From a virus: a DNA stretch of 64,000 nt. Below, in pieces: positions 11,246-29,523 of the stretch (the stretch's first letter is position 1; every line of letters begins with the position of its first letter). The position numbers were made by a program, and so were the translations under genes. Below the pieces are notes generated by a model, which did not search any database, was not told the origin of the DNA, and saw only the letters and a list, made by a program, of their open reading frames with translations. The stretch covers positions 28,869 to 92,868 of the IMG/VR virus record IMGVR_UViG_3300025113_000003, one strand, 5' to 3'.

Positions 11246-11248
11246 GGG

Positions 11249-11455
11249 TCACCAGGTGGAGTAGTCCGTGACGTCCATCTCGAGGACCTCGCCCTTCGGC
11301 CCCTTCACAGTGACGGTGACCGAGCGGCCAATGCCTGAGCTTGCCCTGAAGACGAGAGCGTAGTCGGCACCCGCCTCCATCAGCTCACGGGCCTTGCCTT
11401 CTAGGAAGCGCTTAACGCCCTTCTTCTCTTCCTTGGAAAGGGAAACGTAGCTCAC
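11249..11455 (-). CDS. Hypothetical protein
   Basis: Likely GTG start (SYVSLSKEEKK) overlapping the upstream stop; FRASSGIGRSV..DVTDYSTW. Confidence 0.55.
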   Translation of the reverse strand: MSYVSLSKEEKKGVKRFLEGKARELMEAGADYALVFRASSGIGRSVTVTVKGPKGEVLEMDVTDYSTW

Positions 11456-11805: not shown

Positions 11806-12091
11806 TGATGGTAACCCGGCGCTCGACCTTCGCCGGGATCACCTTGATGATGCGGTAGCTCTTTCGCGAGTAGCTGGCGTCGGTCTCCAGCAGCCACTTC
11901 TGTAGGACATCCTCGGCCTCGAACGCGATGTAGCTGATCACATTCGCGGACTCGGACGGATCTCCCTGGTCGTAACCAGGCACCATCACCGTGTCAGAGA
12001 CAAGGGCAGCGAAGTGCGGAACCGAGGGAACATCCTCTGCCGAGTGCACGTAGATGATGCCGTCTTGATTGAACTGCCCTGGCTGCCTCAT
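11795..12091 (-). CDS. Hypothetical protein
   Basis: ATGA overlap with the topoisomerase stop. Confidence 0.6.
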   Translation of the reverse strand: MRQPGQFNQDGIIYVHSAEDVPSVPHFAALVSDTVMVPGYDQGDPSESANVISYIAFEAEDVLQKWLLETDASYSRKSYRIIKVIPAKVERRVTINVD

Positions 12092-14064: not shown

Positions 14065-14135
14065 AGGTCTCTTGGTGAGTTGCTGGTGCTATTATACACC
14101 ACTGGCCACCGCAGGTTGTAACAGAGGGTGGCCTG

Positions 14136-14303
14136 TTACTTTCTCTCGCACGTGAGCAAGATGAACTTGCCACCTGTCGCCTTCTCGCGAATGCTCTCTT
14201 TGGCGGTCTCACAGGTACCTTGGGTGAGGAACTCCTGTGAGAAGGAGGTAGCCGTGTTCGACGGATAGACGAACACGGCTATCAGCACCCAGATGGTGTT
14301 CAC
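14136..14303 (-). CDS. Small exported protein
   Basis: My translation MNTIWVLIAVFVYPS...EFLTQGTCETAK...LLTCERK. Confidence 0.45.
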   Translation of the reverse strand: MNTIWVLIAVFVYPSNTATSFSQEFLTQGTCETAKESIREKATGGKFILLTCERK

Positions 14304-14812
14304 TCCCAGACCGCCTTCTGCACCTTGACCTTGCCGACGATGCGCAGCAGCACGACCTCGATTCCGCTCTCTGCAGCGATACGCTCCGCCTCAGCCCTTA
14401 CCGTGGCCTCAGTTAGGTGAAACACCGGGTTCGTGCCGAAGGCCAGCTTGTCGGTGGGGGTCAGCGTCGCCAGCAGGAAGCCACGAGCCCCGGCGGCCGT
14501 CCTGGCGGACTGGGTCCGACCTTGCAGCGGCGCTGGGGGCGTCGCCTTGGCGACGGCCAACTCGATGGTCTTGGCGGTCTCGGACGCAAAGGTCTTGTGT
14601 GCACGGGCCAGGTAGACCAGCTGATCCGCCCGGTGCGAGCGCTTGTTCAGCGTGTAGTAGCGTCCAGACGGGGTACTCGAGCCCGTCAGGCGGGCAGGGA
14701 CCCGGCCCCTGGTGGACCAGACGCCGCCGTCGGCGTCCATGTAGTAGCCGTCCATGTAGGTGTCGATGGTCTTCAGCGAGAAGACGCGAACGGGGATTCC
14801 GAGAATGTTCAT
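14300..14812 (-). CDS. Hypothetical protein (HNH/NUMOD4-like N-terminus possible)
   Basis: GYYMDADGGVWS..HRADQLV segment; AGGA RBS. Confidence 0.55.
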   Translation of the reverse strand: MNILGIPVRVFSLKTIDTYMDGYYMDADGGVWSTRGRVPARLTGSSTPSGRYYTLNKRSHRADQLVYLARAHKTFASETAKTIELAVAKATPPAPLQGRTQSARTAAGARGFLLATLTPTDKLAFGTNPVFHLTEATVRAEAERIAAESGIEVVLLRIVGKVKVQKAVWE

Positions 14813-14824
14813 GGTGATGTCCTT

Positions 14825-15052
14825 TCAGTCGTGATCGTTGCTGTCGTACTGGGCGTCCATGTAGCCTTGCGCGCGGCCACCTGCCCAGAGAAATTCAACC
14901 TCGGTCTTGGCCGCAGCCGGGGTCAGGCCGCCCTTGATGAGGGCGTCCATGATGGTCTCGGCTCGCTCGTGGTTAGCGAGCTTGAAGTTCTCACGCTCGT
15001 TCCAGAAGTGATCTAGCGAGGTGCGAAAGACCGGGGTGCGAGGGTTCTTCAT
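14825..15052 (-). CDS. Hypothetical early protein
   Basis: Directly downstream of a TAGAAT promoter. Confidence 0.55.
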   Translation of the reverse strand: MKNPRTPVFRTSLDHFWNERENFKLANHERAETIMDALIKGGLTPAAAKTEVEFLWAGGRAQGYMDAQYDSNDHD

Positions 15053-15124
15053 GTAGTCATTCTATCACAGCAGGCTGGGATGTACATCGCGTGCGTGTAA
15101 CCTGGTATACCACCTGGTGGTATG

Positions 15125-15640
15125 TTACGCCAGGCGATACTGCTTGATGTGCGAGATGAACTGGCCGGCGGGACTCGTGAGCGGGTATCGCACCTGCTGC
15201 AGCTGCCCACCCACTTCGTAGCCGTGCTCCCAGTACGGGTCGACGAACTTCACCGTCTTGCCGTCCTGATCCTGCGTGGCGCCGCCCTCAAAGAACTCGA
15301 CGTTCCAGTACTTCTCTGGCACGATGACGCCGCACGCCGTGGCCATGCAGTTCATCGACTCGAGGTCCTCATGAAAGATAGCCACCTGCAACGCGAGCTC
15401 CGTGAACCCCAGCATGTACAGCTGATCGTAGCAGTCACGCACCCCTTTGTGGTTACCCGCACCACAGATGATGATCGTCTTGTCCTCACGTGCCCATGTG
15501 TGAAAATCCGTTGTGGCAGGTGAAGCTGGGCTGCAGGAAGCGGCAGTCGCCATCTCGCTGACGACGTGGGCCGTCTGGAGCCCGCACTGCAGCGGCGAGA
15601 TGTAGTGGTTGGCAACAAAGGAGTAGAGGCGGTAGTTCAT
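15125..15640 (-). CDS. Peptidyl-tRNA hydrolase Pth2-like protein
   Basis: SPLQCGLQTAHVV, W...DKTIIIC and FHEDLESMNCMATACG pattern typical of phage Pth2-like proteins. Confidence 0.65.
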   Translation of the reverse strand: MNYRLYSFVANHYISPLQCGLQTAHVVSEMATAASCSPASPATTDFHTWAREDKTIIICGAGNHKGVRDCYDQLYMLGFTELALQVAIFHEDLESMNCMATACGVIVPEKYWNVEFFEGGATQDQDGKTVKFVDPYWEHGYEVGGQLQQVRYPLTSPAGQFISHIKQYRLA

Positions 15641-15921
15641 GGGGCTTTCACGGTGATACGAGGTTTGACGGTGACCTGCGGCGGTGCCACGTTGACAACG
15701 GGAGCTGGCACGTTGACCGTTACGGTGCCTTCCTTAGGCACCCATTTTGCGACCTGGGTGCATGCACCGGCGACGTAGACGTGCCCATCGCTTCGATTGG
15801 ATACCTGTGAGCGCAAGCGCAGCCGCTCACAGTCCTCCCAGTTATCGAGGTTGTCGACAACTACCATTCCACCGGCACTGGAGTTCAACACGAGTATCCA
15901 GACCAGAATCTTGATCATCAC
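15637..15921 (-). CDS. Small exported protein
   Basis: Hydrophobic N-terminus, two Cys, VNV(P/A)xP repeats. Confidence 0.55.
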   Translation of the reverse strand: MMIKILVWILVLNSSAGGMVVVDNLDNWEDCERLRLRSQVSNRSDGHVYVAGACTQVAKWVPKEGTVTVNVPAPVVNVAPPQVTVKPRITVKAP

Positions 15922-16037
15922 AGCTCCCTCACCAACGCGCGCGAATTATAGCATTAGCGCACAGATAGCGCGCGCTGCTTCATGGTGTATTGTAGCTTGA
16001 GTGCCCCACAAAGTACACAGGGCAACCTGAGCTGCCC

Positions 16038-16053
16038 TGTAACAGCTGTTACA
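16038..16053. promoter_or_regulatory. Perfect palindrome TGTAACAGCTGTTACA
   Basis: Upstream of a minus-strand GTGTAC..TACAAT promoter; an adjacent GC hairpin lies at ~16018-16039. Confidence 0.55.
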
Positions 16054-16061
16054 GGCCTGTC

Positions 16062-16796
16062 TTAGGCGGCGAGCAACGTGTGAGTGTAGGTGGTTGGTGG
16101 TGCGACCCTGGTGTTGCGCCACCTAATGGCGATCTGAATGTCAGCGATGGCCTTTTCAGTGTTTTCACCTGTAACGATGGCGTCCCATGAAGAGGTGTTC
16201 TGCCAGCGGCGCTCGTCTCCAACGATAGACAGCAACCGACGGTGGTGCTCGGTGATAGCCGTGGCCACCTTCTTCTGTGCCGAGTCAGTTGACACACCGG
16301 CGAAGGCCCCCGAATAGCGGCTGCCTGAGGAGCTTGACACCTTGTCAATTGCATGCCATGAGTCATTGAGAGTGCGGTTAAGTAGGCGCTCCAACCGAAG
16401 GCTCTCCACTGCGTGAACGTAGATCTTGAAGATGTCCCATCCATGTTCGTGGCACTTCTGCTCGTAGATGGCCAGGCCCTGCGGCTCAAGCACCACTATC
16501 GGCGCTACTGCTCCAGCCATCTTGTCAGCCATCTCCTCATGCGTGACGCCGTAGCGGGTGCCGTTGAACTCGATGAGCTCAAAGAACTGACCGAGCTGCT
16601 CAAGGTTGTGCGACTGCGACTCGTTGATGAAGTAGTAGTCGACGCCTTCCTGTTCGCCTGGGCGAGGAACCCGCGTCGTCGTGCTCACGATGCGGCTGAA
16701 GATGTTCTGCTTTACCAGCTCATTGAGCAGGTAGGACTTGCCGCTGCAGGTGGGGGCTGTGATGGTGACGAGAGTGGGGTTGGTGAACTGACTCAT
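16062..16796 (-). CDS. Guanylate kinase-like nucleotide kinase
   Basis: APTCSGKS P-loop, VSTTTRVPRPGEQEGVDYYF and FNGTRYG motifs. Confidence 0.9.
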   Translation of the reverse strand: MSQFTNPTLVTITAPTCSGKSYLLNELVKQNIFSRIVSTTTRVPRPGEQEGVDYYFINESQSHNLEQLGQFFELIEFNGTRYGVTHEEMADKMAGAVAPIVVLEPQGLAIYEQKCHEHGWDIFKIYVHAVESLRLERLLNRTLNDSWHAIDKVSSSSGSRYSGAFAGVSTDSAQKKVATAITEHHRRLLSIVGDERRWQNTSSWDAIVTGENTEKAIADIQIAIRWRNTRVAPPTTYTHTLLAA

Positions 16797-17392
16797 GGAT
16801 GTTTCCTTTTGCTTCTACCTTGATACCAATCCTCTCCAGGACTGGTGACGGTTCTTTGGTTGTTTGTTCCATTGGTCCACCACTTTGTTCCTGCTGTGGC
16901 AAGACCTGCTTTCATCTTAGTTTCTGCTGTATGATATGAAAGTCGTCCGTCAATCCATCCTTCTGGACATGAGATAAATCGCTTGCTCACTGTGCCGTTG
17001 TTGCACCAAATTAACCTGCGCTCTTTCCATTTACGACGTTGTCCTTCTGAAATATCCGGCCTAATACGTCCTTTCAATTTGGCGCTGTTTATCTTCCCAA
17101 GTCTCTGATAGAAACCGTTTTCTTGCTTCACTCGATGAGCCTCTTCAGCGCCCCTAGCACACATATCTCTAAACAGCTGCTGCTTTACTTCGTCAAAGTT
17201 CACGTAGAGACTTGCGTGAAGGAAATTTGCAGAAGCAAGATCCGCTTTCTTTCCATACGTTTCATAGAGCCGACGATGTGCAGCAATATGCTCTTCGATA
17301 GTTACGTATTCGATGTTGTCATCATCGTCTGTTCCACCTGCGTGTTTTGGAGTTTTGTGATGACGATGATAGCCTTTTATTGGTTTCTTCAT
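16793..17392 (-). CDS. Free-standing HNH homing endonuclease with NUMOD-like C-terminal repeats
   Basis: HRHHKTPKHAGGTDDDDN..EEHIAAH; WCNNG/WWTNG repeats; markedly AT-rich; perfect TATAAATA at 17411-17418. Confidence 0.85.
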   Translation of the reverse strand: MKKPIKGYHRHHKTPKHAGGTDDDDNIEYVTIEEHIAAHRRLYETYGKKADLASANFLHASLYVNFDEVKQQLFRDMCARGAEEAHRVKQENGFYQRLGKINSAKLKGRIRPDISEGQRRKWKERRLIWCNNGTVSKRFISCPEGWIDGRLSYHTAETKMKAGLATAGTKWWTNGTNNQRTVTSPGEDWYQGRSKRKHP

Positions 17393-17421
17393 AGCCCACC
17401 TCTTGCGGGCTATTTATATGT

Positions 17422-18678
17422 CTATGTTGACACACTCTTCAGGTTAAGCCAATCACGGGCTATTTTCAATGATTGAGCAATAACAATCCACATATCGAGA
17501 TATTGATAGGTGCCGCAGCGGCCGATGAAGGTGACATGGTGCAGCGCCTCGGCCTTCTCCTTGTAGCGCTGGTAGAGCGCGCGGTGCGGGCAGTCAGGTA
17601 GGGACGTCTTGACTGGGTAGTACCGCTCCAGGTCGTTGTCCTTGTAGTCGCACGGCTCCTCGACCGTTAGCGTCGTCCAGTAGGGGTTGTCGCCGTGCAC
17701 CGGCAGGTTCTTCCACTCGGTGACGCGCGTGTGCGGCCCGTCATGCGTGAAGTTAACGACTGGGGCTCCCTGAAAGGTAGGGACCGGCAGTGAGAAGGTG
17801 TGCATCTTGATGGACCGCCAGGGTAGCTCGCCAAGCTCGCAGTTGAAGTAGGTGTCGATCGGCTCAGAGGTGAAGACGTGATCAAACACCCGGTCCTTGA
17901 TGCCGCACCGCGCGCACAGCCAGGCCTCGATGTCGGCTCCTGGCTGAACCAGCAGCTGACGAGAGAGCTCCAACCGTACAGTGATGTTCGGGTGATCCAG
18001 AATTCGACTGACCATCGCCGTGTAGCCGTCCTTAGGCAGGTACTGGTGCTTGTCCTTCGGAAAGTAGTGCCAGCTGCCGCTCTCAACGTTCGTCGGGATA
18101 CGCGCAGCTACCGAGGCAGGTAGCTCCTCGAGCTCAAGGCCCCACATCTTCTTGGTATAGGGCGCGAAGAGGAGGTCACAGAGCTCCTTGCCAACGGAGT
18201 TCTCGACGTGTTGACGGGAGTTGGTGACCGGGTCGTGGTGAGTGACCAGAGTTTCAAGGAAGGCGGAATGGGCGCCCCGCCGAGCGCCAAAGCCACCGAT
18301 GTCGTTGTGCCGCTCAGCGTACCACTGGGGGTGATCTTCTAACCACTCCTCGAACTGAATGTCCAGCACCTCCTCTACGGTGTCGTGGTTGATAGGCAGC
18401 GGAACGGTGATGCCATCCTTGAGCAGCGCCAGCACCCAGTGGTGATACGGTTCCCACTCGGTGAATCGAGACGCCCACTCTTGGACATCGTCGTTGGAGG
18501 TGTGCCAGAGGTGCGGTCCGTAGCGGTGTACCCGGATACCGTGCTCATTGACGTAGTCAAAGGCGTTACCAGCCACGTGGTCCCGCCTGTCGATGACCAG
18601 CACCGTGTGACCCGCCTCAGCAAGCTCGCGTGCCACAGTTGCACCGGCGAAGCCGGCACCTACCACAAGTACCTTCAT
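17422..18678 (-). CDS. glf: UDP-galactopyranose mutase
   Basis: Start MKVLVVGAGFAG (18678); AGNAFD, HRYGPHLWHT, PYTKKMWG, ARIP, RVTEWK, RYYP and GRCGTYQYLDM motifs. Confidence 0.93.
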   Translation of the reverse strand: MKVLVVGAGFAGATVARELAEAGHTVLVIDRRDHVAGNAFDYVNEHGIRVHRYGPHLWHTSNDDVQEWASRFTEWEPYHHWVLALLKDGITVPLPINHDTVEEVLDIQFEEWLEDHPQWYAERHNDIGGFGARRGAHSAFLETLVTHHDPVTNSRQHVENSVGKELCDLLFAPYTKKMWGLELEELPASVAARIPTNVESGSWHYFPKDKHQYLPKDGYTAMVSRILDHPNITVRLELSRQLLVQPGADIEAWLCARCGIKDRVFDHVFTSEPIDTYFNCELGELPWRSIKMHTFSLPVPTFQGAPVVNFTHDGPHTRVTEWKNLPVHGDNPYWTTLTVEEPCDYKDNDLERYYPVKTSLPDCPHRALYQRYKEKAEALHHVTFIGRCGTYQYLDMWIVIAQSLKIARDWLNLKSVST

Positions 18679-18986
18679 TCTTCTTCTCCGCAGAGCTTCA
18701 CTATGGTCATTGTATCTGCTACGTACCACAGACCGCCCTGACTTGCAGGTCGAGCGTGCCTGGTGTAGCCGTCAAACCTGACTCGAGCCCAGACCCGCCC
18801 CTTCTTACTGAGATGCGGTGCTAGCTTTCGGGCGCAGATGTGCCAGCCAGGTCGAAAGGCGTAGCCCTTCGTGGGGTGGCTCTCCGCCTGGTAGGTCTCA
18901 CCGACCTCTAGCCGCTGGGATCGGTTGATGAAGAGAGGCCCCAGCGACCCGTCCCGGCGACGCCGGAGCAGCTTGTAGCCGAACAC
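18675..18986 (-). CDS. Hypothetical phage protein
   Basis: Coupled ORF; GYAFRPGWH motif. Confidence 0.6.
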   Translation of the reverse strand: MFGYKLLRRRRDGSLGPLFINRSQRLEVGETYQAESHPTKGYAFRPGWHICARKLAPHLSKKGRVWARVRFDGYTRHARPASQGGLWYVADTMTIVKLCGEEE

Positions 18987-19223
18987 TCAGATATCCTCGA
19001 CCGCGTGCTCGATCTCCGCCTCGGTCAGCGGCACCCCCAGCGCCGCCTGCAGCGCCGTGCAGACCATTCGGGCGGTGGCCAGCTCCCCGTGCTCGAGCAG
19101 GTAGTCATCGACGACGTTGAGGTCGAAGTTGATGTAGGCCTTGCCGGTGTCGTGCTCGAAGAAGCCGAGCGTACGGACGCCGTCCTCGTCGTTGTAGACC
19201 TCTTTGTAGAACCGGTAGCTCAT
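18987..19223 (-). CDS. Hypothetical protein
   Basis: Coupled ORF. Confidence 0.55.
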   Translation of the reverse strand: MSYRFYKEVYNDEDGVRTLGFFEHDTGKAYINFDLNVVDDYLLEHGELATARMVCTALQAALGVPLTEAEIEHAVEDI

Positions 19224-20470
19224 TTTGATGCCTCCAGGACGAGTTGAAGCTCAGCGCGCTGTACAGATCTATCTAGTGGGTGGAGCTCGTATAGGCAGAA
19301 TCGCTGCGTTGCAGCGATCTCCTTCAGCTCCGGGTCAGTCGCCACTGTCAGGTCGGTAGCCTTCAGGCCAAAGAACGGGTAGTCGACTCCATAGTAGACC
19401 CGCAGCTCCTTGTCGTCACCAATGAGGATTGACCCCGCGTCGGCGCACTGCAGCGGTCGGGCCCGCCACCAGCCTGAACCGGCATGCTCGTAGCCCGGCA
19501 TCAGGCAACCCCAGTCACGGGTAATGGTGATCACCATGTCGTCCTCAGTCAGGCGCTTCTGGCTCTCGGCCTTTGAGCCGTAGAGGTCCACTGGCCAGGT
19601 GCCGATGAAGCCCTGCTCATCGTCCTTCGGGTTGCTCGTGTAGCCCTGCTTCTTCAACCACTTTTGGGTCTTCGACTGGACAAGGCTGGCGAAGTTGAAG
19701 CGGCGCTCCTTTTCAGGACGCGGGGACTGGGTGACGCTGAGAAGACTTGCCTTGAACGTCGGGTCCTCGGCGCCTTCATGACCTTCGTCGTTCCACATGC
19801 GGTTGCGGTGATACGGGTTCGGATTGTAGACAAAGAGGCGGCTGCGTGGGTAGCTGATCTTGTCGAACAGCAGGTGCGGGCCGTAGGCCTCGTTGTCGCC
19901 GAGGTGCTCAGTACGGAAGGCGCTGATGAGCATGCGGTTCTTCATCGTCGTGATCGTCTTGATGGCGGCCATGTAGGCGTTGATATGCGGTACCTGCTCC
20001 TCGTACGTCGTCTTGTTCACGTCCAGAATGAACTGCGCTAGCAGCTCCTTCGCGTCTGCGCACTTGGCCACACCTTTGAAGAGGTCAGGTACCTGCCAGT
20101 CGTCGAAGGCCAGGATGCAGTTGGGTCGATCAGCGATGGCCCACAGCCCGTTGAAGACGGTCGTGGCCACCAGCTGCCGCGGTCCGGCGATGAAGACGAT
20201 CACCTCGTCGTAGCCGCTGAGGTCCTCGCCAATGGTCACCTTGCGCTGCTCAACCTCGTAGCCCATGTCGGTCAGGCAGTTGAAGAGCGAGTAGTGCGAC
20301 GGCACCACCTTCAGCTGCTGGCGCAGGTAGAACTTGCGGGTGCACTGGTTGGCGTTGAAGCCGGTGATGAGGATCTTTGGCTTGGTCATGATCAGCTCCT
20401 GGGCTCGTTCTTCAATTGCGGTGCGTCGCCCTTCAGGCAGCGCGTCAAGGACGTCGGTCAGCGTTCTCAT
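19220..20470 (-). CDS. Putative GT-B glycosyltransferase, T4 beta-glucosyltransferase-like
   Basis: KILITGFN...KVVPSHYSLFNCLTDMGYEV resembles my recollection of the T4 BGT N-terminus; AFDDW and GWWRAR motifs; lies between galE and glf; alternative start at 20389 with AGGAG. Confidence 0.55.
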   Translation of the reverse strand: MRTLTDVLDALPEGRRTAIEERAQELIMTKPKILITGFNANQCTRKFYLRQQLKVVPSHYSLFNCLTDMGYEVEQRKVTIGEDLSGYDEVIVFIAGPRQLVATTVFNGLWAIADRPNCILAFDDWQVPDLFKGVAKCADAKELLAQFILDVNKTTYEEQVPHINAYMAAIKTITTMKNRMLISAFRTEHLGDNEAYGPHLLFDKISYPRSRLFVYNPNPYHRNRMWNDEGHEGAEDPTFKASLLSVTQSPRPEKERRFNFASLVQSKTQKWLKKQGYTSNPKDDEQGFIGTWPVDLYGSKAESQKRLTEDDMVITITRDWGCLMPGYEHAGSGWWRARPLQCADAGSILIGDDKELRVYYGVDYPFFGLKATDLTVATDPELKEIAATQRFCLYELHPLDRSVQRAELQLVLEASK

Positions 20471-21354
20471 ACGTTACGGAAAGCTGAGAGGCACATGTCA
20501 GAGAGGGTACGGGTGATGGCGGCGTGGGGGTACAGGGACCTCGCATGGCAGATCATGATGTCGTCATCACCAGCGCGCCGGTCAGTGATGACGACCGGGA
20601 AGCTGGTGTTGGTCACGTGCTTCATCTCGTGGATGACCTCCAGCACGCTGTAGCCCATGCCGGTGCCTAGGCATTCAAATGGCGTGTTGACTGGCCCGAC
20701 CTCAACGGCGTTGGCGATGGAGGCGGCGATGTCCTGCACGTGGACGTAGTCACGAACGGCGGTACCGTCCTTGGTCGCGTAGTCGGTACCGAAGACCTTG
20801 ACATCTCCGCGCTTACCACGCGCCGCCTCAGCGCAGATGCGAATGAGGTGCGTCGGCTGCCCTGTTGGTCGAATGCCAGGCGCCAGCCCTGACACGTTGT
20901 AGAAGCGGAAGATGGTGTGCCCGTCAAACCAGCGGGGCGTTGCCGCCGCCACGTCGGTGATGTAGCTCTCGCAGGCCACCTTGGTGCGCGCGTAGGGTGA
21001 CGTGGGGTTGAAGGCGGTACCAGTCGAGGCGAAGATGAGGTGCGGTGTCCGCAGCTGCTCCAGCTCCATGAGCGAGGTCAGGTTGTTGTGCCAGTAGGTG
21101 TGTGGTTCCCGCGTGCTCAGCTCCACTGAGATAAACGCCGCGAGGTGCACGATGGCGTCGTACTCGCTGCACAGCTCACCAAGCCCGCTCTGCACCGCGC
21201 GGTTAAGCAGCCGTCCCACGCGCTGGTGCACGAAGTCAAAGTTGACGTGGTCGCTTGAACCGTCGACCACGTCGACGCTGTGCCCACGGTTGACCAGCTC
21301 ATCCACCACGTGCGCGCCGATGTAGCCCAGTCCACCTGTAACCAGTACCTTCAT
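20467..21354 (-). CDS. galE: UDP-glucose 4-epimerase
   Basis: VTGGLGYIG, HLAA, YARTK (YxxxK), FRFYN and DGTAVRDYVHVQD motifs. Confidence 0.88.
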   Translation of the reverse strand: MKVLVTGGLGYIGAHVVDELVNRGHSVDVVDGSSDHVNFDFVHQRVGRLLNRAVQSGLGELCSEYDAIVHLAAFISVELSTREPHTYWHNNLTSLMELEQLRTPHLIFASTGTAFNPTSPYARTKVACESYITDVAAATPRWFDGHTIFRFYNVSGLAPGIRPTGQPTHLIRICAEAARGKRGDVKVFGTDYATKDGTAVRDYVHVQDIAASIANAVEVGPVNTPFECLGTGMGYSVLEVIHEMKHVTNTSFPVVITDRRAGDDDIMICHARSLYPHAAITRTLSDMCLSAFRNV

Positions 21355-21437
21355 GTCATCTCCTTAGAGCCCAAACCCGGGCCCGCGCACCTACTTATCG
21401 CATTCTAAGCGAAAACCAATCTGACTGAGGCACCATT

Positions 21438-21953
21438 TTATAGGTCGAGCGCCAGCTGCAGTACTCCCATTAGCTGGTATGGTTCCTTCGCGTGAAAGCG
21501 CTTGTGTGCCTGTGGGTGGTAGACAGTGGAAACAGGAGCGTACTCGCTGAAGTTCCTGCTGAACCACTTGTTCGCATTACCACCGAGACAGACCACCAGC
21601 ACTCCAGGATTGGCGTTCAGCTGAAGCTCCACCAGCTTGGGATCCAGCGCAGTGCCATCCGCCAGCTTTGTGTTGAACCACAGCAGCACCGTCTCAGGTA
21701 TGTGGTGCTCCACCAGCAGCTTGTTCAGCCACAGGCTGCTGTTCTTCGTGCTGTAGAACGGCGTGTGGTGATAGCCAGGGGTGTTGGGCCGACCTGGCCC
21801 AGGCGTGTCCCCTAGCAGGATGACCTCAGTTGACCGCTTTACGCCCTTCATCGCCTCGATGTAGCGCTTACGCCGGTGCTGCAGGCGCTTCGAGATGCCG
21901 GTCTGGATCTCACGGTCAAGCTTGTCAAAGGCAGCACCAAACAGCGAGGCCAT
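21438..21953 (-). CDS. Uracil-DNA glycosylase-superfamily-like protein
   Basis: VILLGDTPG, VVCLGGNA and VYHPQ match UDG-superfamily motif A/B layout. Confidence 0.55.
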   Translation of the reverse strand: MASLFGAAFDKLDREIQTGISKRLQHRRKRYIEAMKGVKRSTEVILLGDTPGPGRPNTPGYHHTPFYSTKNSSLWLNKLLVEHHIPETVLLWFNTKLADGTALDPKLVELQLNANPGVLVVCLGGNANKWFSRNFSEYAPVSTVYHPQAHKRFHAKEPYQLMGVLQLALDL

Positions 21954-22171
21954 CAGAGCCGCCCCACCTCATCGGCGACCGATTGGTCAGCCTGGATGAA
22001 GGCGATCTTTTCACGCATCTCGTCATCGCTGTAGATGTACATGAACTTGTCCTGCTTCAGCTGCCGCTTGGGGTCAGCGTGATCGTAGATGAAGGTGATG
22101 TAGCCCTGCTCCTTCGCCGCATGCATCCGCAGCGCCGTGTCATCATGAGTGGAGATGATGACTACCTTCAC
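21953..22171 (-). CDS. Hypothetical protein
   Basis: Coupled ORF. Confidence 0.55.
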   Translation of the reverse strand: MKVVIISTHDDTALRMHAAKEQGYITFIYDHADPKRQLKQDKFMYIYSDDEMREKIAFIQADQSVADEVGRL

Positions 22172-22743
22172 TCGAGCGCTTCAGCGAGGACCCAGTCCCT
22201 GGGCTTGAAGCCACCAAGCGCGGGGTCCGTGACGCAGATGATCCGTTTGTCGCGGATGATGGAGCGCCTGAATGCAGCTAGAAAGCGGTTCTGCTCCTCT
22301 TCGCGCTGCTGCAGCTCGCCTAGACTCTGCCCGTCGTCGACGAAGTGGCTAGAGACATGGAAGTCCTCAGTCAGCAGGATGAGCCGTATGTCGGCTGCGT
22401 CAAGGTGGTGCCGTTCTTCGAAGTCAAAGACGTACTCACCGCTGTACGCACGGTACATGGGCGCGTACACCATCTCACCTAGGTGCCAGCGATCAAAGAT
22501 GAGACGGGCACCCGAGCGCGCCATGATCATCGAGTTGCGGAAGCCCTCCTGCTGGTAGTGGTAGGCAGCTAGACTACCAGGCGGCACCCCTTCGATCGGC
22601 GAGGTACCAGCGTAGGCATCTAGCTTCTTCGGCTTGGAGAAGTGGATGACCTGGTAGTAGCCAAGGCGATTGATGATGCCCTCGATGAGGGTGCTCTTAC
22701 CGAGGCGGTCGATTCCCTCGATGGCGTAGACGGCGTGGGCCAT
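22168..22743 (-). CDS. dNMP/thymidylate kinase-like protein
   Basis: IEGIDRLGKST P-loop; FDRWHLGEMVY. Confidence 0.85.
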   Translation of the reverse strand: MAHAVYAIEGIDRLGKSTLIEGIINRLGYYQVIHFSKPKKLDAYAGTSPIEGVPPGSLAAYHYQQEGFRNSMIMARSGARLIFDRWHLGEMVYAPMYRAYSGEYVFDFEERHHLDAADIRLILLTEDFHVSSHFVDDGQSLGELQQREEEQNRFLAAFRRSIIRDKRIICVTDPALGGFKPRDWVLAEALE

Positions 22744-22745
22744 GC

Positions 22746-23054
22746 TTAGACCTCGATCGTGATGTAGTGATCGCCAGGGGTGCTCTTGAAGACAATCATG
22801 CCACGATCATCCTCAACAGTTACGTGCGGATCAACGGTGTCGTAGGCATCACCTAAGAAGTCAGAGCCGTACACATCTTCGATCTGCGTAATGATCTCGA
22901 AGGCGGCGTTGGCGTATGTGCCCTTCCCGAGGCGGCAGGAAGATACCAGGGCGGCGATCAGCTCAAGCTGCTCATCGGTAAGATTGAGCTGGCTTCCACC
23001 AGTACCGATGATCACTGTGTCGCTGTCCTCATCAGGGCGTGATTGGATCTTCAT
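22746..23054 (-). CDS. Hypothetical acidic protein
   Basis: Coupled ORF. Confidence 0.6.
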   Translation of the reverse strand: MKIQSRPDEDSDTVIIGTGGSQLNLTDEQLELIAALVSSCRLGKGTYANAAFEIITQIEDVYGSDFLGDAYDTVDPHVTVEDDRGMIVFKSTPGDHYITIEV

Positions 23055-24175
23055 ACGAATCCTACTCCTCGTCGGTTCTTGTTACTAGAAGGCTGAGAGT
23101 TGAAGAGCTCAGCCAAAGTAAACTCACTGCCATCTGGCAGCTCACGGTCAGATCCCAGCTCCGCGTAGACGGCCTGCGCCTCCACTCGGGTCAGGGGGCG
23201 GAACTGCTGCACATCGAAGCAGCGACCCTCGCGCAGCAGCGCGGGATCGATATCGTGGATGTTGGGTAGGTTGGTGGAGAAGACCAGCTTCTTGTCGGCC
23301 GCTGAGATGAGGCCGTCCGACAGGTTCAGGAACCGGTGCATCATCGTGTTGCCGTCCTGACGGCTGTCGAGGAAGCTGTCGGCGTCCTCCATGATGAGGA
23401 AGCGGCACTCGTCCTCGATGAAGCCAGCGAAGAAGTCGTCGGCACCCAGGACCTTCTCGTCGTAGGCCACCTTCGCGTTGCCGCCGGCCTGGTGGATCAG
23501 GTTCTTGATGAAGGTCGTCTTGCCAGTCCCGGGTGGGCCGATGAGGATGAGGACGTTGGCCTCGCTGTTCAGGTAGTCGTCGATGTACTGGCTCATCGAG
23601 CGATCGAGCCAGGGGTAGGCCGCCTGAACCGCCGCGCGGTAGTTCAGCGGCACCGAGATGGTATCGCCGCGGGTGTTGTAGACCCATTCGATCAGGTTCT
23701 CGGCGCGCTTGAAGTTGGCGTCGAAGTAGGTCTCCCACTTCTTGACCCAGGCGACGTCACCGGTAAAGGTCACCAGCACCTTGCCGCGAGAGGCCTCAAC
23801 CACCAGGTTGCCCTCTCGACAGGGGACGAGAACCTTCAGGTGCCCGAAGAAGGTATACGACGGAAAGCGCATGCGCTCGATCCAGTCAGCCAGCTTGAAC
23901 TCAGCTGGCGTGATCCAGGTGTTGTGCTTCTCCAGGGTCTGCCGCCCGGCCAGGTGGCGGGTACGAAGCAGGTCGGCGTTGATCCAGTCCTCAGACCCGT
24001 ACACCCCAAGGATTACTTCATTCTTAGGCGTGATTTCCGGTTTGAAGAGCGGGTAGTCATCCATTGGGTGTTCCCATTTTCTCTGGTTATGGCGGCGCGT
24101 GCGACGAGTGCGGCGCGAGCTCCTTACGAGGCGCCTGGTGTCAAAGTCAATCAGTGGCTTGGCTCCAAACGGCAT
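23051..24175 (-). CDS. AAA+ ATPase
   Basis: GPPGTGKT, IMEDAD, STN and DPALLREGR motifs; alternative start at 24064. Confidence 0.9.
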   Translation of the reverse strand: MPFGAKPLIDFDTRRLVRSSRRTRRTRRHNQRKWEHPMDDYPLFKPEITPKNEVILGVYGSEDWINADLLRTRHLAGRQTLEKHNTWITPAEFKLADWIERMRFPSYTFFGHLKVLVPCREGNLVVEASRGKVLVTFTGDVAWVKKWETYFDANFKRAENLIEWVYNTRGDTISVPLNYRAAVQAAYPWLDRSMSQYIDDYLNSEANVLILIGPPGTGKTTFIKNLIHQAGGNAKVAYDEKVLGADDFFAGFIEDECRFLIMEDADSFLDSRQDGNTMMHRFLNLSDGLISAADKKLVFSTNLPNIHDIDPALLREGRCFDVQQFRPLTRVEAQAVYAELGSDRELPDGSEFTLAELFNSQPSSNKNRRGVGFV

Positions 24176-24199
24176 ATGTCCTATTCTAATTTATTGGGC

Positions 24200-25957
24200 T
24201 CAGTCGGCGTCAGTCGAATTGAGGTTGGAGGTGTAGGAGGTCTGGAACTCGTTCGCCCAGACGTTGTCCTTCCCGGTCCAGAGCCGCTGGATGCCGGTGT
24301 CCAAGGCGTAGGTAACCGCATGGTCTTCCGAGGATCGCACTGACCGACCAGCTCCCTGCACGATCTTCATGAGGGTGGTCAGCGAGTAGATGTCAGGGTA
24401 CCGGTCAAGGATGACCTTGATGCGCTTGTCGCCCAGCGAGGCGAAGGGCGCCTTCACGATGACCTGGAAGCGGCTCAGGTCGCCAGGCAGGTCGATGCCC
24501 TCAAAGCCGGAGGGCGTCAGCATGACCGCTGGCCCAGCGGTGTAGGCCTTGAAGTCAGCGAGCACGTCGGCCAGCTTCTCGCCGCGCAGGTGCTCGAAGA
24601 TGCGGTAGGACGGGCTCATTCCGCGCAGAGTAGCAGCGACGCTCTCGACGACCGCGAAGCTAGGCGCCAGCACGATGCCGCGGTGCCCCTGTTTCACGTG
24701 GTGGTCCACGATCTGCCAGGCAGTGGCGCACAGCTTCTTCACCGTTTCGGGCTGCTTCATGCTGCTGTAGTTGAGGGCCTGCGGCTTGAAGAAGACCATC
24801 CGCTTGCTCTCACGCGGAAACGACGGCTCTAAGCGGATGCCGATGGTGTCGCCCGGCAGCGTCATCGTGCGCTTGGCGTACGCCTCGCTCACCGTTGCCG
24901 ACATCAGGAGGTTGTGCTCAGCGTTGTCAAGCGCCTCGAACATGTCACCCACGAAGATGGGCTTGACGCTGAGCTCATCCTCCGCCTGCCCCTTCTTGAC
25001 GTCACGCGGCTTGTGTTCGAAGACATGTGGGTACTCGAAGAGGAAGAGGTCGTCGATCTTGCAGCCCAGGTTGTAGAACTTCTTCGAGAGCCGCTGAAGC
25101 TTGATGAACTTAGCCGGCTGCCGGATGCTCCGCTCCGCCGCCTGCTTAGCCGCCTCGCTGATCGCGGTGTAGGTGTCAAGCAGGACCTGCAGCCACTTCA
25201 GGTACGACCCGTCCTCGTCGCTGATCTTCCCTCGAACGAGAGCCTCACGCACCGCCTTCAGGTTGCGGAAGACGTCGGTGTGTCCCAACGTCAGGTGCTC
25301 GTTGACCTCCTCAGCGAACTGGTTGAGCCGCTTCTCAGAGACGTAGATGGCGTTGTGCTCAACGAAGAGGTCGTTCAGCAGGTGCGCCTCATCGAAGACC
25401 GTCAGGGTGCGCCGCGGCATCGGTGTCGTCGAGTACATGCGATCGATGAAGTAGAACGCGTAGTTGGTGATGATGTGCCGCGCCCCCGCCTTCCGAGCCC
25501 GTGAGACCTGGTACTCGCACCCACCGCAGTAGAGGTCGATGAGGTCCTGCGCACCGGTCTTGCGGAAGATGGGAATGGCGCAGGCCTCAGCGGTCTGCGG
25601 CTCCTCAGGGGTCGAGAGGGCCTTGCACTCGTAGTTGCCGGCGCCCTTCAGGAGCAGGAAGCCGTTCTCGGCGCGGTCACCGAACGTCTGGAAGTACTGG
25701 TCCAGCAGGACGTTGGTGGCCGACAGGAGGAAGGTCGCGTTGGCCTTGGTATCTGGGTAGCGAATGGAGTGCAGGACCTCACCGACCACGGTGCCGATGA
25801 TGGACTTGCCGGTGCCGGTGGGAGCGGAGAGCACCACGTTCTTGGCCTTGTCGTCCAGGAAGGCGGACACCACGCGGTCCACGCGCTCGGCCTGGTGGTC
25901 GCGTGGCGTGAAGCCGAGGCGGGTGAAGGCCTCGTGGATGGGCTGCTCGTATCTCAC
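24200..25957 (-). CDS. DinG/Rad3-like SF2 helicase
   Basis: APTGTGKS, Cys cluster, DEAH, MSAT, EGIDLPG and QGAGRSVR motifs; likely GTG start at 25957. Confidence 0.9.
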   Translation of the reverse strand: MRYEQPIHEAFTRLGFTPRDHQAERVDRVVSAFLDDKAKNVVLSAPTGTGKSIIGTVVGEVLHSIRYPDTKANATFLLSATNVLLDQYFQTFGDRAENGFLLLKGAGNYECKALSTPEEPQTAEACAIPIFRKTGAQDLIDLYCGGCEYQVSRARKAGARHIITNYAFYFIDRMYSTTPMPRRTLTVFDEAHLLNDLFVEHNAIYVSEKRLNQFAEEVNEHLTLGHTDVFRNLKAVREALVRGKISDEDGSYLKWLQVLLDTYTAISEAAKQAAERSIRQPAKFIKLQRLSKKFYNLGCKIDDLFLFEYPHVFEHKPRDVKKGQAEDELSVKPIFVGDMFEALDNAEHNLLMSATVSEAYAKRTMTLPGDTIGIRLEPSFPRESKRMVFFKPQALNYSSMKQPETVKKLCATAWQIVDHHVKQGHRGIVLAPSFAVVESVAATLRGMSPSYRIFEHLRGEKLADVLADFKAYTAGPAVMLTPSGFEGIDLPGDLSRFQVIVKAPFASLGDKRIKVILDRYPDIYSLTTLMKIVQGAGRSVRSSEDHAVTYALDTGIQRLWTGKDNVWANEFQTSYTSNLNSTDAD

Positions 25958-26109
25958 AGGTGCTTCCCGAACCAGCAGTAGACCGCGAACCACTTGAAGC
26001 CAGGGCCACGCGTATCATACACGCGGTTGTGGAACCAGTACAGCTTCCAGTCACGCGAGAGCTGAATGTGCTTCGACCCGAAGCGGATGTTGAACAGCAG
26101 GTTGCTCAT
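25954..26109 (-). CDS. Small hypothetical protein
   Basis: MSNLLFNIRFGS start overlaps the upstream stop. Confidence 0.5.
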   Translation of the reverse strand: MSNLLFNIRFGSKHIQLSRDWKLYWFHNRVYDTRGPGFKWFAVYCWFGKHL

Positions 26110-27086
26110 TCGTGCTCGGCCTGGTCGAAGATGGTGTGGAAGGCTTTCTCGTCGTTCCCGAAGAAGGCCCGCACGAGGGTACGCCAGTACGGGGACAGCA
26201 TCTGGAAGCTCATGCACTCGTAGAAGTCGAAGTCCTCAGGAGCGCCGGCTGCCTGCCACGCGGCCTCGGTGCCCACCAACCCAGTGAGAATTCGGTCATT
26301 GAACGCGTCCATCGGGATCATGCTGACGTCGATGGCACGCTCAGTCGCGATGATCTTCTCAGCCATCTCGAAGTGGCGGTCGTAGATGTGCATCGACCCG
26401 GCGTTGTGGAAGTAGAAGCCCAGCTTGAGGTCGGGGTAGGTCGCCTTCAGCTGCAGCAGCATCGCTTCCTGCAGCATCGTGAACTGGAAGACGTCGTTCG
26501 TGAAGCCTAGGATGACGTCGTTGGACCGCATGCTGACGATCAGGTGCAGGCGGCTGTCGCGGATCAACCACTGCAGCGTCAGCGTGCAGGGCACGTCCTT
26601 GTTGCCGGCATGGCGATCATGCGGCACGTGGATGTTCATGATCGCCTGGCGGGTGTCCTTGTCGCGTTCGAGCAGCGCCGCTGTCTCGTTCCACTGGTTG
26701 ATCGGTTCTGACTGTGGACCAATGTACCGGTCTGTGCCTACGAAAGCAGGGGCCTTGGAATGGCCGAAGAGCCGGTGCCCGTAGTTGGAGTTCACGGTGC
26801 CGTCGGAGTTGCGGATGCTGTCCCAGAACTTGGCGTACGGCAGGATGCCCTTGGGGTCCGCAGAGCCTGAGATGTACCAGATGAACTCGCCAAGCAGGTA
26901 CTTGGTGCTGGTCTTTCGCGCCGGGAAGGTGATGACCCGGTTGCGGGGGTCGGTCAGCGTGATGTTGTAGTTGATGAGCTCCCGGGTCGTGGTGCCGCGC
27001 GGGTGGGCGACCGAACCGTTGGTCATCAGGTTGGATAGACAGAGCCTGAAGTCGTTGTTCAGGTAGAAGGTCGGGACTTGCTCCAT
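26106..27086 (-). CDS. dCMP hydroxymethylase/hydroxylase-like thymidylate-synthase homolog (T4 gp42-like)
   Basis: VNSNYG, DKDTRQA, DVPCT and MRSNDVILGFTNDVFQF, with Asp where ThyA has Asn; a canonical ThyA is already present. Confidence 0.85.
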   Translation of the reverse strand: MEQVPTFYLNNDFRLCLSNLMTNGSVAHPRGTTTRELINYNITLTDPRNRVITFPARKTSTKYLLGEFIWYISGSADPKGILPYAKFWDSIRNSDGTVNSNYGHRLFGHSKAPAFVGTDRYIGPQSEPINQWNETAALLERDKDTRQAIMNIHVPHDRHAGNKDVPCTLTLQWLIRDSRLHLIVSMRSNDVILGFTNDVFQFTMLQEAMLLQLKATYPDLKLGFYFHNAGSMHIYDRHFEMAEKIIATERAIDVSMIPMDAFNDRILTGLVGTEAAWQAAGAPEDFDFYECMSFQMLSPYWRTLVRAFFGNDEKAFHTIFDQAEHE

Positions 27087-27291: not shown

Positions 27292-29523
27292 ATGACAACC
27301 AAGAACTTCTTCGGCGGTGCCATCATCAACTACGGTTCGGTACTACCGTCCGTTGGCGGTGTTCCTGACGGCGCGCTGTTCTTCAAGACCGGCACCAGCC
27401 CGGGCATCTACATCTTCAGCCTCAACATAGATGCCAACAGCACCAACCTAGGCAACCAGCCTGCGCAGACCTGGCAGCAGCTCGTTTCAACCGCTTCCAG
27501 CGGTTCAGATGCTGCCTCGCTCGGTGGTCAACCAGCCAGCGCCTACTACCGCAACAACCTGTCAGGACTGAGCCCCACAACCGCTGACCCAACGGCAAGC
27601 TTCTGGATCGATACGACGTCTCCAGCCATCAAGTCCACCGTAAACACGGCCAGCCTTCCTGGCAATTTCCCATCAACGACAGGGGCAACCTGGACCTTCC
27701 TGTCAAGCATGAATCTTGGCGGTACGGTTGATAACTACCAGCGCGCCCTTGACCTGCACAAGAGCTATGCTGGTGCTGCACACGGTTTCTACCTGCGTTC
27801 CTACAGCAGCGCTGGTATCCCAAACAACTGGGAACGCATCATCACCGACGCCACCATGGGTCCTGGGTCAGGACTTGACGCTGACCTGCTCGACGGCGAG
27901 GACGGGCTCTTCTACCGCAACGCCAGCAACATCAACGCCGGCACTCTAGCCACCGCGCGTGGTGGCACTGGGGTCAGTCACACCTCGCTGACGCAGGGTG
28001 CGGTCATGTATGCCGCGTCGGCCACCACCATTCAGGACTCTGCCGTTGGCGCAGCAACCTCAGGATCAGGCACCAACCAGAACTGGCAGGTGCTGACCTC
28101 AGGGGGTGGAGCCGCTCCAGCGTGGGTGAACTCCACAGGGCTAAACGTAGCATTTGCCACCAACGCTGCCTTTGCCAGCTCAGCGACGACCGCGACGACC
28201 GCCACAACGGCGCTAACAGCCAACGCAGTCGCGTGGACAGGTATCACAGGTCTACCTTCTGCTCAGCAGAGCTGGACAGATTTGCCGGCTGCTGGTTTCG
28301 ACACCCGAGCCGGTGCGGCGCTGTTCTATGACATGGGCAACATCGCTGCTCTGTCAATGAACCCATCGCAGTTTGTACCTGGAACCCTGAGTGGCTTTGA
28401 TGCCTACAGCACCTCAGATATGGGCCAATACCAGGTCGGCCTAACAGTCGTTGGACTGGGCGGCGCCGGGCGCCGGGCGGTGCAGCTTGCTGCCAACTGG
28501 AACTTCGAAGAAGCGGCACCAAGCGGGCTTCGCTTCCGTGTCAACGACGACACAGGAACCGCTGGGGCGTGGGGAGCGTTTAGAACGCTTTGGGACAACG
28601 GTAACTTGAACGCCCTCTCACAGCTGACCAACGACCAAGGGTTCATAACCGGAGCATCTCTGGCAAACTACCTTGACAAGACGACGGCAACGGCGCAGTC
28701 GGTCGTCAGCAACGTCACGTTCAATAACGACATCAGCGTTGGTGATCGCGCCACTGCTAACAGCTTGGCGGTGACTGGCGGTGCGGGAATTGGTGGAGTT
28801 TCAATACCTGGTGTTGGTAGCTTGAACGTGGGAGCAAACATTCTTGCTTTCGGCAACATCAGCGCTCAGGGGAACCTAAACACAACTGACAACGTATACG
28901 CCAGCGGTGGATCAAGCGGTATAGTTGCCTACGGGGCAAGCGGGATGGTGCACGCAGGCGTTTCAGCCGCGCACGGCGGTGGCGGAGGCTCAGGAGCCAT
29001 CCGTATGCAGGGGTCAGGGTCAGCGAACTCAGGATATATCGAGTTCTATGCCTCCAATGGCACCTCACAGACGCGCACCAGCTACATCGGAACCTCAACG
29101 TTTTCCACTCAAGATGCTGGTACGTTGACCTACTCAGCTGGGCTCCACAGCTTCGCTGGAGATATCTCTACCAACGGCAACGTCACCGCCTACTCCTCTG
29201 ACGCCCGCCTGAAGGAAAACGTGACGGTCATCCCAGACGCCATCAAGAAGGTAAAGAAGCTAGGTGGCTACGAGTTTGATTGGAAGGAGCGCCTCTGCGA
29301 GCAGGTCGGTTTTCAACCAGCGCAGCGGCACGAGCACGGGCTGCTGGCGCAGGAAGTTGAGCAGGTAATGCCTGACGCGGTGACAGCTGCAGCGTTCAAC
29401 TCTGACTACAAGACGGTGCGCTATGAGCGGCTCGTGGCGCTACTGGTCGCCGCCATCAATGAGCAACAGGAGCAGATAGCTGCGCTTCAGCAGCAGGTAA
29501 CTGAGCTGGCGAATGGCGACTAA
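27292..29523 (+). CDS. Tail fibre with C-terminal intramolecular chaperone (peptidase S74)
   Basis: GSGLDADLLDG, Gly/Ser/Thr-rich body, SSDARLKEN cleavage site, GLLAQEVE and coiled-coil tail. Confidence 0.88.
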   Translation: MTTKNFFGGAIINYGSVLPSVGGVPDGALFFKTGTSPGIYIFSLNIDANSTNLGNQPAQTWQQLVSTASSGSDAASLGGQPASAYYRNNLSGLSPTTADPTASFWIDTTSPAIKSTVNTASLPGNFPSTTGATWTFLSSMNLGGTVDNYQRALDLHKSYAGAAHGFYLRSYSSAGIPNNWERIITDATMGPGSGLDADLLDGEDGLFYRNASNINAGTLATARGGTGVSHTSLTQGAVMYAASATTIQDSAVGAATSGSGTNQNWQVLTSGGGAAPAWVNSTGLNVAFATNAAFASSATTATTATTALTANAVAWTGITGLPSAQQSWTDLPAAGFDTRAGAALFYDMGNIAALSMNPSQFVPGTLSGFDAYSTSDMGQYQVGLTVVGLGGAGRRAVQLAANWNFEEAAPSGLRFRVNDDTGTAGAWGAFRTLWDNGNLNALSQLTNDQGFITGASLANYLDKTTATAQSVVSNVTFNNDISVGDRATANSLAVTGGAGIGGVSIPGVGSLNVGANILAFGNISAQGNLNTTDNVYASGGSSGIVAYGASGMVHAGVSAAHGGGGGSGAIRMQGSGSANSGYIEFYASNGTSQTRTSYIGTSTFSTQDAGTLTYSAGLHSFAGDISTNGNVTAYSSDARLKENVTVIPDAIKKVKKLGGYEFDWKERLCEQVGFQPAQRHEHGLLAQEVEQVMPDAVTAAAFNSDYKTVRYERLVALLVAAINEQQEQIAALQQQVTELANGD

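Follow-up and report, generated by a model that had tools for sequence, protein, structure and literature searches.

Why would a phage carry a gene for UDP-galactopyranose mutase (Glf) in the midst of genes that act on nucleotides and DNA? The question is raised by a 64,000-nucleotide stretch of viral DNA, here called the window, which spans bases 28869-92868 of the 92,868-bp IMG/VR record IMGVR_UViG_3300025113_000003. Window positions 16062-27086 form a single co-oriented block with all genes on the minus strand, several of them coupled in translation; after the last gene the block ends at a terminator-like hairpin (16041-16016). An earlier reading of this DNA from its letters alone (the sequence-only reading) had named in one cluster a second thymidylate-synthase homolog, two nucleotide kinases, a GalE epimerase, a glycosyltransferase and Glf, and every one of these genes is found in the block. 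In the T-even phages, glucosyl-5-hydroxymethylcytosine is produced by the gp42 dCMP hydroxymethylase, the gp1 dNMP kinase, the gp56 dCTPase and an alpha- or beta-glucosyltransferase. Here, we propose that the block, on balance, encodes a DNA cytosine hypermodification pathway of this T4 type with a different sugar, the product being galactofuranosyl-5-hydroxymethylcytosine (galactofuranosyl-5hmC). Sugar-coated cytosines are one of the principal means by which phages withstand restriction enzymes, CRISPR nucleases and type IV systems, and a new sugar alters which host defences are effective; if the proposal is true, a furanose hexose on 5hmC would be a new chemical class of phage DNA modification and an undescribed base. 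The genes assigned to the pathway, and the separate thymidylate synthase, are the following (aa, amino acids).

26106-27086, minus strand: thymidylate-synthase homolog, predicted dCMP 5-hydroxymethylase, long MilA-like form of 326 aa (Pfam PF00303 Thymidylat_synt, 6e-26)
22168-22743, minus strand: (d)NMP kinase of thymidylate-kinase fold, 191 aa, candidate 5-hydroxymethyl-dCMP kinase (phrog_761, 1.2e-10; weak match to Pfam Thymidylate_kin)
20467-21354, minus strand: GalE-like UDP-hexose 4-epimerase, 295 aa, putative accessory supplier of UDP-galactopyranose (TIGR01179, 5e-57)
19220-20470, minus strand: glycosyltransferase of the GT-B type resembling T4 beta-glucosyltransferase (BGT), candidate 5hmC galactofuranosyltransferase (no family; AlphaFold2 model; likely start 20389)
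17422-18729, minus strand: UDP-galactopyranose mutase, Glf (PF03275, 2e-50; likely start 18678)
16062-16796, minus strand: guanylate-kinase-like nucleotide kinase, last gene of the block (PF00625 Guanylate_kin, 8e-17; phrog_1815, 3.7e-28)
5183-6124: canonical ThyA, apart from the block (motif RSVDSFLGLPFN)

In the proposed model, the thymidylate-synthase homolog would convert dCMP to 5-hydroxymethyl-dCMP (5hm-dCMP), as its active-site residues suggest, and the thymidylate-kinase-fold kinase, perhaps together with the guanylate-kinase-like enzyme, would phosphorylate 5hm-dCMP so that the polymerase can incorporate 5hmC. Glf and, where present, GalE would, by their family membership, provide the donor sugar along the route UDP-glucose to UDP-galactopyranose to UDP-galactofuranose (UDP-Galf). 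Once the DNA has been replicated, the transferase would move galactofuranose (Galf) from UDP-Galf onto the hydroxymethyl group that 5hmC exposes in the double strand, a step to which its fold, its linkage and its comparative context point; if it is inverting, like BGT, beta-D-galactofuranosyl-5hmC would result. Phage DNA modified in this way would be expected to be shielded from restriction enzymes, CRISPR nucleases and those type IV systems that recognise glucosyl-hmC. Two parts of this model can be graded separately: it is very likely that the transferase glycosylates 5hmC in DNA, and probable, with clearly less assurance, that the sugar it moves is Galf. The sequence-only reading had already drawn the route from UDP-glucose to a sugar on hmC, and active-site residues, a BGT-like fold and gene linkage support it in silico, with two amendments set out below: GalE is dispensable, and the variant of the route that ends in hydroxycytosine is disfavoured.

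The strongest argument for the model is the comparative context. Related loci were gathered from IMG/VR (7) and from metagenomes (18), 23 of them distinct, and they keep the order synthase homolog, helicase, kinase, transferase, Glf and guanylate-kinase-like gene, so that the arrangement is not due to chance. All 13 metagenome loci of sufficient length have Glf after the transferase, as do six of the seven IMG/VR loci (the seventh, L024, stops just past the transferase), and the synthase homolog lies upstream in all six metagenome loci that reach that far and likewise wherever the IMG/VR loci reach. The 191-aa kinase is present in every related locus, the guanylate-kinase-like gene is conserved after Glf, and the helicase sits between synthase homolog and kinase in all related loci of sufficient reach. 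With a CheckV completeness of 26%, the record is a fragment of an uncultured jumbo phage of about 350 kb; the genomes of relatives measure 349,660 bp (97% complete) and 358,444 bp. A megablast of the block against the phage collection gave no match and a cultured close relative was not found, the best matches to the helicase being below 30% identity.

The nature of the base is predicted from the thymidylate-synthase homolog, which was aligned with T4 gp42, Aeromonas phage 25 gp42, ThyA proteins and the proven 5-hydroxy-dCMP synthases RB69 gp48 and RL38J1 gp216. Its motif MRSNDVILGFTND, which the sequence-only reading had rightly taken as a dCMP-type signature as opposed to RSVDSFLGLPFN in the separate ThyA, fits the pattern MRSND..G..ND, as do T4 gp42 (MRSNDVVFGFRND) and Aeromonas phage 25 gp42; the 5-hydroxycytosine (5hoC) synthases of RB69 and RL38J1 carry MRSQNCAVVMQLD and MRSQNMVSVWPYD, of the pattern RSQN...D. 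The catalytic cysteine (E. coli C146) is kept (VPCT in the window enzyme, aligned with PCH in ThyA and MCT in gp42), and Asp stands at the position of E. coli N177 (GFTND vs GFRND in gp42 and LPFN in ThyA), a replacement that marks cytosine over uracil as the substrate (PMC5175136, PMC13326640). Asp is also retained at the position of E. coli D169, both in the window enzyme and in all 12 clade relatives examined. Replacement of this residue (D169N) is diagnostic of 5-hydroxy-dCMP synthases, all tested ones having Asn there (PMC13326640), and the signature, found in RB69 gp48, DLP3 gp80 and RL38J1 gp216, is absent from the window enzyme and its clade relatives, which disfavours 5-hydroxycytosine, the other base that the sequence-only reading had allowed. 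The best match among PDB sequences is the CMP hydroxymethylase MilA (1.6e-29), followed by T4 dCMP hydroxymethylase (3.7e-20) and ThyA (3e-15). The preference of MilA for ribo-CMP is due to Ala176 and Lys133, in place of which deoxy-specific enzymes have Ser and Arg (PMC5175136); in the HMMER alignment the window enzyme has Ser at the A176 site (S167 in thymidylate synthase; MRS-ND vs MRA-ND in MilA) and Arg at the K133 site (R126; DTRQ vs DSKR), so that a deoxy substrate is predicted. By blastp it is much closer to T4 gp42 (8.5e-24) than to RL38J1 gp216 (6e-5), and in a maximum-likelihood tree ThyA, the 5hoC synthases (100/99) and the T4-gp42-like enzymes form three strongly supported groups.

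The related loci also contain a natural replacement of this enzyme. The long MilA-like form measures 317-374 aa across them, and in three loci it is swapped at the same position for an enzyme of 244-247 aa that is 51-58% identical to T4 gp42; the transferase of these three loci is nonetheless 72-75% identical to that of the window. The short gp42-like forms, in the slot of window 26106-27086, lie as follows.

L022, 2991-3731: short gp42-like form
L023, 2651-3391: short gp42-like form
L024, 5422-6153: short gp42-like form

This is the displacement of one lineage by another at one position, and the presence of two synthase lineages in one slot suggests a single function, the synthesis of 5hm-dCMP. 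Taken by its residues, the window enzyme carries the determinants of a dCMP hydroxymethylase, with 5-hydroxymethyl-dCMP as the predicted product.

The transferase has no match to any Pfam family at E <=0.01 (hmmscan), GT63 (PF09198) included, nor to any NCBIfam family, and its profile found nothing meaningful among PDB sequences; homologs number 712 at E <=1e-5 (453 representatives of 50%-identity clusters). Its AlphaFold2 model (predicted local distance difference test score, pLDDT, 94.9; predicted template-modelling score, pTM, 0.90) has two Rossmann domains, and the modelled fold is certainly GT-B. T4 BGT is the nearest structure to the model, by a modest margin, with a score of 18.2 and a root-mean-square deviation of 3.7 over 304 residues covering the whole BGT chain; SenB (16.4), T4 alpha-glucosyltransferase (15.2) and the arabinosyltransferase of phage HY126 (14.8) come next. 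The sequence-only reading had placed a BGT-like enzyme between galE and glf and had proposed an AlphaFold and profile comparison with T4 BGT; the model agrees with it in both fold and nearest structure. On the profile side, hhalign aligns the transferase to the T4 BGT sequence at 62.5% probability (E 7e-5) over the N-terminal 73 columns only, and when this alignment is extended at low stringency, where the confidence of the columns is low, the catalytic base of BGT, D100 (FTDIRLP), pairs with the nearly invariant D124 (FDDWQVP), and the UDP-binding R269 pairs with R338. Translation likely starts at the ATG at 20389, given an AGGAG 8 nt upstream and the fit with the 385-390 aa of most homologs. 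The protein is thus modelled as a candidate member of a previously undescribed family of BGT-like DNA glycosyltransferases, which, if real, might be of use in selective labelling of 5hmC. That this family, widespread in uncultured jumbo phages of soil and sludge and present as well in cultured T4-like phages of Aeromonas and Erwinia and in a cyanophage-like phage with a TET/JBP enzyme, uses UDP-Galf to make galactofuranosyl-5hmC is a view towards which we lean slightly.

In addition to PF03275, Glf matches NAD_binding_8 (3e-17), and its FAD motif GAGFAG (GxGxxG) and the segments YTKKMWG, ARIP, HYF, LPWRS, YYPV and GRCGTYQYLDM align with the solved mutases 1WAM and 3HDQ, so that the hallmark motifs claimed for it, including the conserved Arg/Tyr motifs, are present. 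We take these segments to be the regions of K. pneumoniae R174, R280, Y155, Y185, Y314 and Y349. The TIGR00031 score of 293.8 bits is narrowly under the equivalog cut-off of 303.75, and the start is most likely 18678, by an ATGA overlap with the preceding open reading frame (ORF). The epimerase likewise has TIGR01179 as its best family at 193 bits, below the equivalog cut-off of 262 bits, and is a short protein; its top 30 PDB matches are all UDP-glucose/UDP-galactose 4-epimerases, as its naming as GalE implied. Its part in the route is limited to the phages that have it. Roughly half of the related loci have GalE beside the transferase; it lies away from the block in the complete 358-kb relative (G001, 345300-345935) and was not found in the 97%-complete 349-kb relative or in Aeromonas phage 25. 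It is dispensable in relatives, where UDP-galactose of the host can evidently be enough. GalE thus stands as a component of the window, as first read, and falls as an obligatory one.

The 191-aa kinase has an invariant P-loop, IEGxDRLGKS, and an FDR motif, and its AlphaFold2 model (pLDDT 92.6) gives the B. subtilis prophage protein YorR/BSU20280 as top Foldseek match, followed by thymidylate kinases. On this model it is an NMP-kinase-fold protein and a candidate 5hm-dCMP kinase, which, with the Pfam match of the guanylate-kinase-like enzyme, bears out the two kinases first named in the block. Neither the kinase nor the small ORFs of the window have BLAST similarity to the synthase-homolog neighbourhoods of RL38J1, RB69 and T4.

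Outside the clade of the window, the transferase occurs with Glf in phages of other lineages. The two genes are neighbours near motA in Stenotrophomonas phage IME13, in Erwinia phage FBB1 and in T4-like phages of Aeromonas (19 records). Carriers of the pair that are in culture include phages 25, Aes012, Aes508, phiAS4 and AS-gz of Aeromonas as well as FBB1, which puts a direct test of the prediction within reach. Genes 42, 56, alc and denB are all present in Aeromonas phage 25, for which no glucosyltransferase is known (PMC2993671), an old puzzle that the proposed activity, if true, would explain; no GT1 or GT2 (glycosyltransferase families 1 and 2) gene was found in phage 25, and another user of UDP-Galf is therefore not evident there. 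In the cyanophage-like phage C48C1 (Kyanoviridae), in which no thymidylate-synthase homolog was found, transferase (37% identical to that of the window) and Glf form an operon with a Tet_JBP dioxygenase (PF12851, 3e-17), a predicted second route to the same sugar-modified hydroxymethyl base. Searches with single distant representatives of the transferase yielded one locus each. On the T4-like contig L031, the place that b-gt has in T4, with a gene 42 homolog (60% identical to T4) on one side and uvsX/gene 41 on the other, is taken by a member of the family (37% identical); the FAD protein beside this member is not detectably a Glf, and the sugar on hmC may be a different one. In L030, the family member lies amid DNA methylases, a cytosine-type synthase homolog and a dCMP deaminase. 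The operon and the T4-like locus are as follows.

L006, 10580-14027 (OQ984149.1, 49583-53030): C48C1 operon of Tet_JBP dioxygenase, transferase and Glf
L031, 8521-15958 (IMGVR_UViG_3300010885_045188): gene 42 homolog, transferase-family member, FAD oxidoreductase, epimerase-like protein, xylose-isomerase-like TIM barrel, C5 cytosine methylase, uvsX

With gp42-type enzymes in some genomes and TET/JBP in another, the transferase family travels with makers of hydroxymethylated cytosine of either type, and in its Glf-linked subset no other consumer of UDP-Galf is evident. A co-occurrence of gp42-like enzyme, galE, glf and transferase across phage genomes, which the sequence-only reading had suggested looking for, is seen in part: transferase and Glf are always linked within that subset, together with a gp42-type enzyme or a TET/JBP dioxygenase, and galE is variable.

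Compared with known systems, the window pathway resembles that of T4 in the active-site signature of gp42, in having a nucleotide kinase, in a GT-B transferase to which T4 BGT is the closest solved structure and, in relatives, in a family member at the b-gt position beside gene 42, and the logic would be the same, the base being altered before and the sugar transferred after replication. In contrast to T4, the transferase falls outside the BGT family by sequence (no Pfam match), the hydroxymethylase belongs to the long MilA-like lineage with 30% identity to gp42, a gp56 homolog was not found in the complete relatives, and the pathway encodes its own sugar-nucleotide enzymes (Glf, often GalE), whereas T4 draws on host UDP-glucose. 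The closest precedent is Rhizobium phage RL38JI (Pootjesviridae), in which glycosylated 5-hydroxycytosine with a base-proximal galactose and three transferases was described in NAR in 2026, the authors proposing a phage UDP-galactofuranose route (PMC13326640). Phage Glf, synthase homolog, thymidylate-kinase-like kinase and GT-B transferases are common to both. RL38JI differs in its base, 5-hydroxycytosine, which is the product of a flavin-type enzyme with D169N, whereas the window enzyme keeps D169; RL38J1, with a genome of 158 kb, is not a jumbo phage and lacks the window transferase family, and the RL38JI-type Glf is distant, Rhizobium phage matches to the window Glf ranking below those at 31-43% identity. 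In clusters associated with TET/5mYOX and ThyS, phage GT-B or GT-A enzymes lie by a 5hmC-forming enzyme and often need a partner sugar epimerase for a non-host nucleotide sugar; the products include hexose, HexNAc, hexuronic acid and heptose, with no mutase or furanose mentioned (bioRxiv 10.1101/2023.12.21.572611). The C48C1 operon is of this TET-associated type. Arabinofuranosyl-5-hydroxycytosine of RB69, DLP3 and related phages differs in sugar, base and transferases, its pentose coming from ribulose-5-phosphate, its base being 5hoC and its transferases being others. Full-text literature searches turned up no publication connecting galactofuranose with the hydroxymethylcytosine of phage DNA, and the novelty claimed for a Galf base holds in that sense; it is narrowed by the galactosyl-5-hydroxycytosine that, together with a phage Glf, is known from RL38JI (PMC13326640).

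Several points weigh against the proposed pathway. Modified base, sugar, ring form and DNA acceptor are all predicted from genes and not from chemistry. The long-form clade of the window is separate in the synthase tree and joins the gp42 side weakly (80/76), so that the assignment of function rests on active-site residues and not on clade membership, and the mapping of transferase residues onto BGT, drawn from a low-confidence alignment, is suggestive only. Searches for a dCTPase of the T4 gp56 type found none in the contig (26% of the genome) and none in G001 or G002, the complete relatives, where matches to MazG are sub-threshold only; replacement of cytosine may therefore be partial or need an unrecognised enzyme. 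Members of the transferase family without a Glf neighbour exist (L030, L031), from which it follows that the donor sugar varies within the family. Finally, the galactofuranosyltransferases known to us are GT-A enzymes of GT2, and each near-complete relative has a GT2 (Glycos_transf_2) gene far from the block (G001:C1:329238-329732; G002:C1:331091-331429), which could be the real user of UDP-Galf and makes a two-sugar product, or another use of UDP-Galf, possible. These last points lead to an unlikely, though still serious, alternative: that the transferase puts a pyranose (glucose or galactopyranose) on 5hmC, with Glf serving a further transferase, such as the GT2 enzyme, which adds a second furanose or uses another acceptor. 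The di- and tri-hexosides that several transferases build on RL38JI DNA (PMC13326640) would fit such a scheme. It is at odds with the adjacency of transferase and Glf, which holds throughout the clade and also in three unrelated lineages of phages, and with Aeromonas phage 25, which keeps both genes and yet has no GT1/GT2 match.

Departures from galactofuranosyl-5hmC at the level of acceptor, base or ring size are less probable still. GalE, transferase and Glf might act off DNA, on a virion protein or a component of the host envelope, and stand beside nucleotide genes by accident; envelope glycans are the usual role of Glf, and a tail-fibre gene lies just past the block (27292-29523). We consider this improbable in view of the conserved order in which the pair is embedded among dCMP-type synthase, kinases, helicase and topoisomerase, the operon with a DNA-base dioxygenase in C48C1, the family members at the b-gt position and among DNA methylases, the DNA glucosyltransferase as nearest structure, and a block in which no flippase, polymerase or lipid-carrier enzyme is seen. 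More doubtful again is a 5-hydroxycytosine base of the kind found in RB69, DLP3 and RL38JI, to whose C5 the sugar would be joined by a direct ether bond: RL38JI does combine synthase homolog, kinase, transferases and Glf with galactosyl-5hoC (PMC13326640), against which stand the retained Asp at D169, the separate clade of the 5hoC synthases, the weak blastp match to RL38J1 gp216 and the absence of the window transferase family from RL38J1 and RB69. As for arabinofuranose, which the sequence-only reading had offered as a related alternative, its L form would require UDP-xylose as the substrate of the epimerase and UDP-arabinopyranose as that of the mutase. To our knowledge, UDP-galactopyranose mutases do interconvert the ring forms of UDP-L-arabinose in vitro, and arabinofuranosylated phage cytosines exist (PMC13326640), although the arabinosylating phages known so far use a ribulose-5-phosphate route with other enzymes (PMC13326640). 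With neither a UDP-glucose dehydrogenase nor a UDP-xylose synthase seen in the block, and with an epimerase that relatives dispense with, we regard this sugar as scarcely probable.

The block contains further genes, to which no definite step of galactofuranosyl-5hmC synthesis is assigned.

24200-25993, minus strand: DinG/XPD-type helicase (Pfam Helicase_C_2, ResIII, DEAD, DEAD_2)
23051-24175, minus strand: AAA ATPase, limited to the subclade of the window (Pfam AAA, 1.2e-9; synteny)
22746-23054, minus strand: ORF of 102 aa
21953-22171, minus strand: ORF of 72 aa
21438-21953, minus strand: ORF of 171 aa with a uracil-DNA-glycosylase-like fold, as a lead only (ESM Atlas structure search)
18675-19223, minus strand: two small ORFs of 78 aa and 103 aa (the latter phrog_12224), whose presence varies among relatives
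16793-17392, minus strand: HNH homing-endonuclease-like insert, outside the pathway (phrog_655, 3.6e-7; weak Pfam HNH)

The 171-aa ORF, which is conserved and lies between kinase and GalE, has no Pfam or PDB sequence match, and in the ESM Atlas its template-modelling scores to a family-4 uracil-DNA glycosylase are 0.57/0.51, a lead only; in other phages its relatives are fused to a Thymidylate_kin domain. It was considered as a gp56-like dCTPase and rejected, as it has no likeness to gp56. A base-flipping protein tied to the kinase in this way may add a further part to the pathway. Among cultured phages, homologs of the helicase (26-29% identity) come chiefly from Ackermannviridae-like phages of Salmonella, Klebsiella and Dickeya, from Rhizobium phages and from Bacillus phage G. 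The HNH insert sits between Glf and the guanylate-kinase-like gene and, among the relatives, is seen in L037 only; just upstream of it, at 17411-17418 on the minus strand, lies TATAAATA, the T4 late-promoter consensus and its sole copy in the window. Divergent from the block, on the plus strand at 27292-29523, is the gene of a 743-aa tail fibre or spike with a C-terminal Peptidase_S74 intramolecular chaperone (Pfam). Upstream of the window, bases 1-20000 of the contig encode a Thg1-like tRNA-His guanylyltransferase, a T4-type RNA ligase, PhoH and a ClpP protease, as well as a double AAA (MoxR-like) ATPase adjoining a DUF2201 metallopeptidase-like protein and a 1286-aa PKD/Ig-repeat protein.

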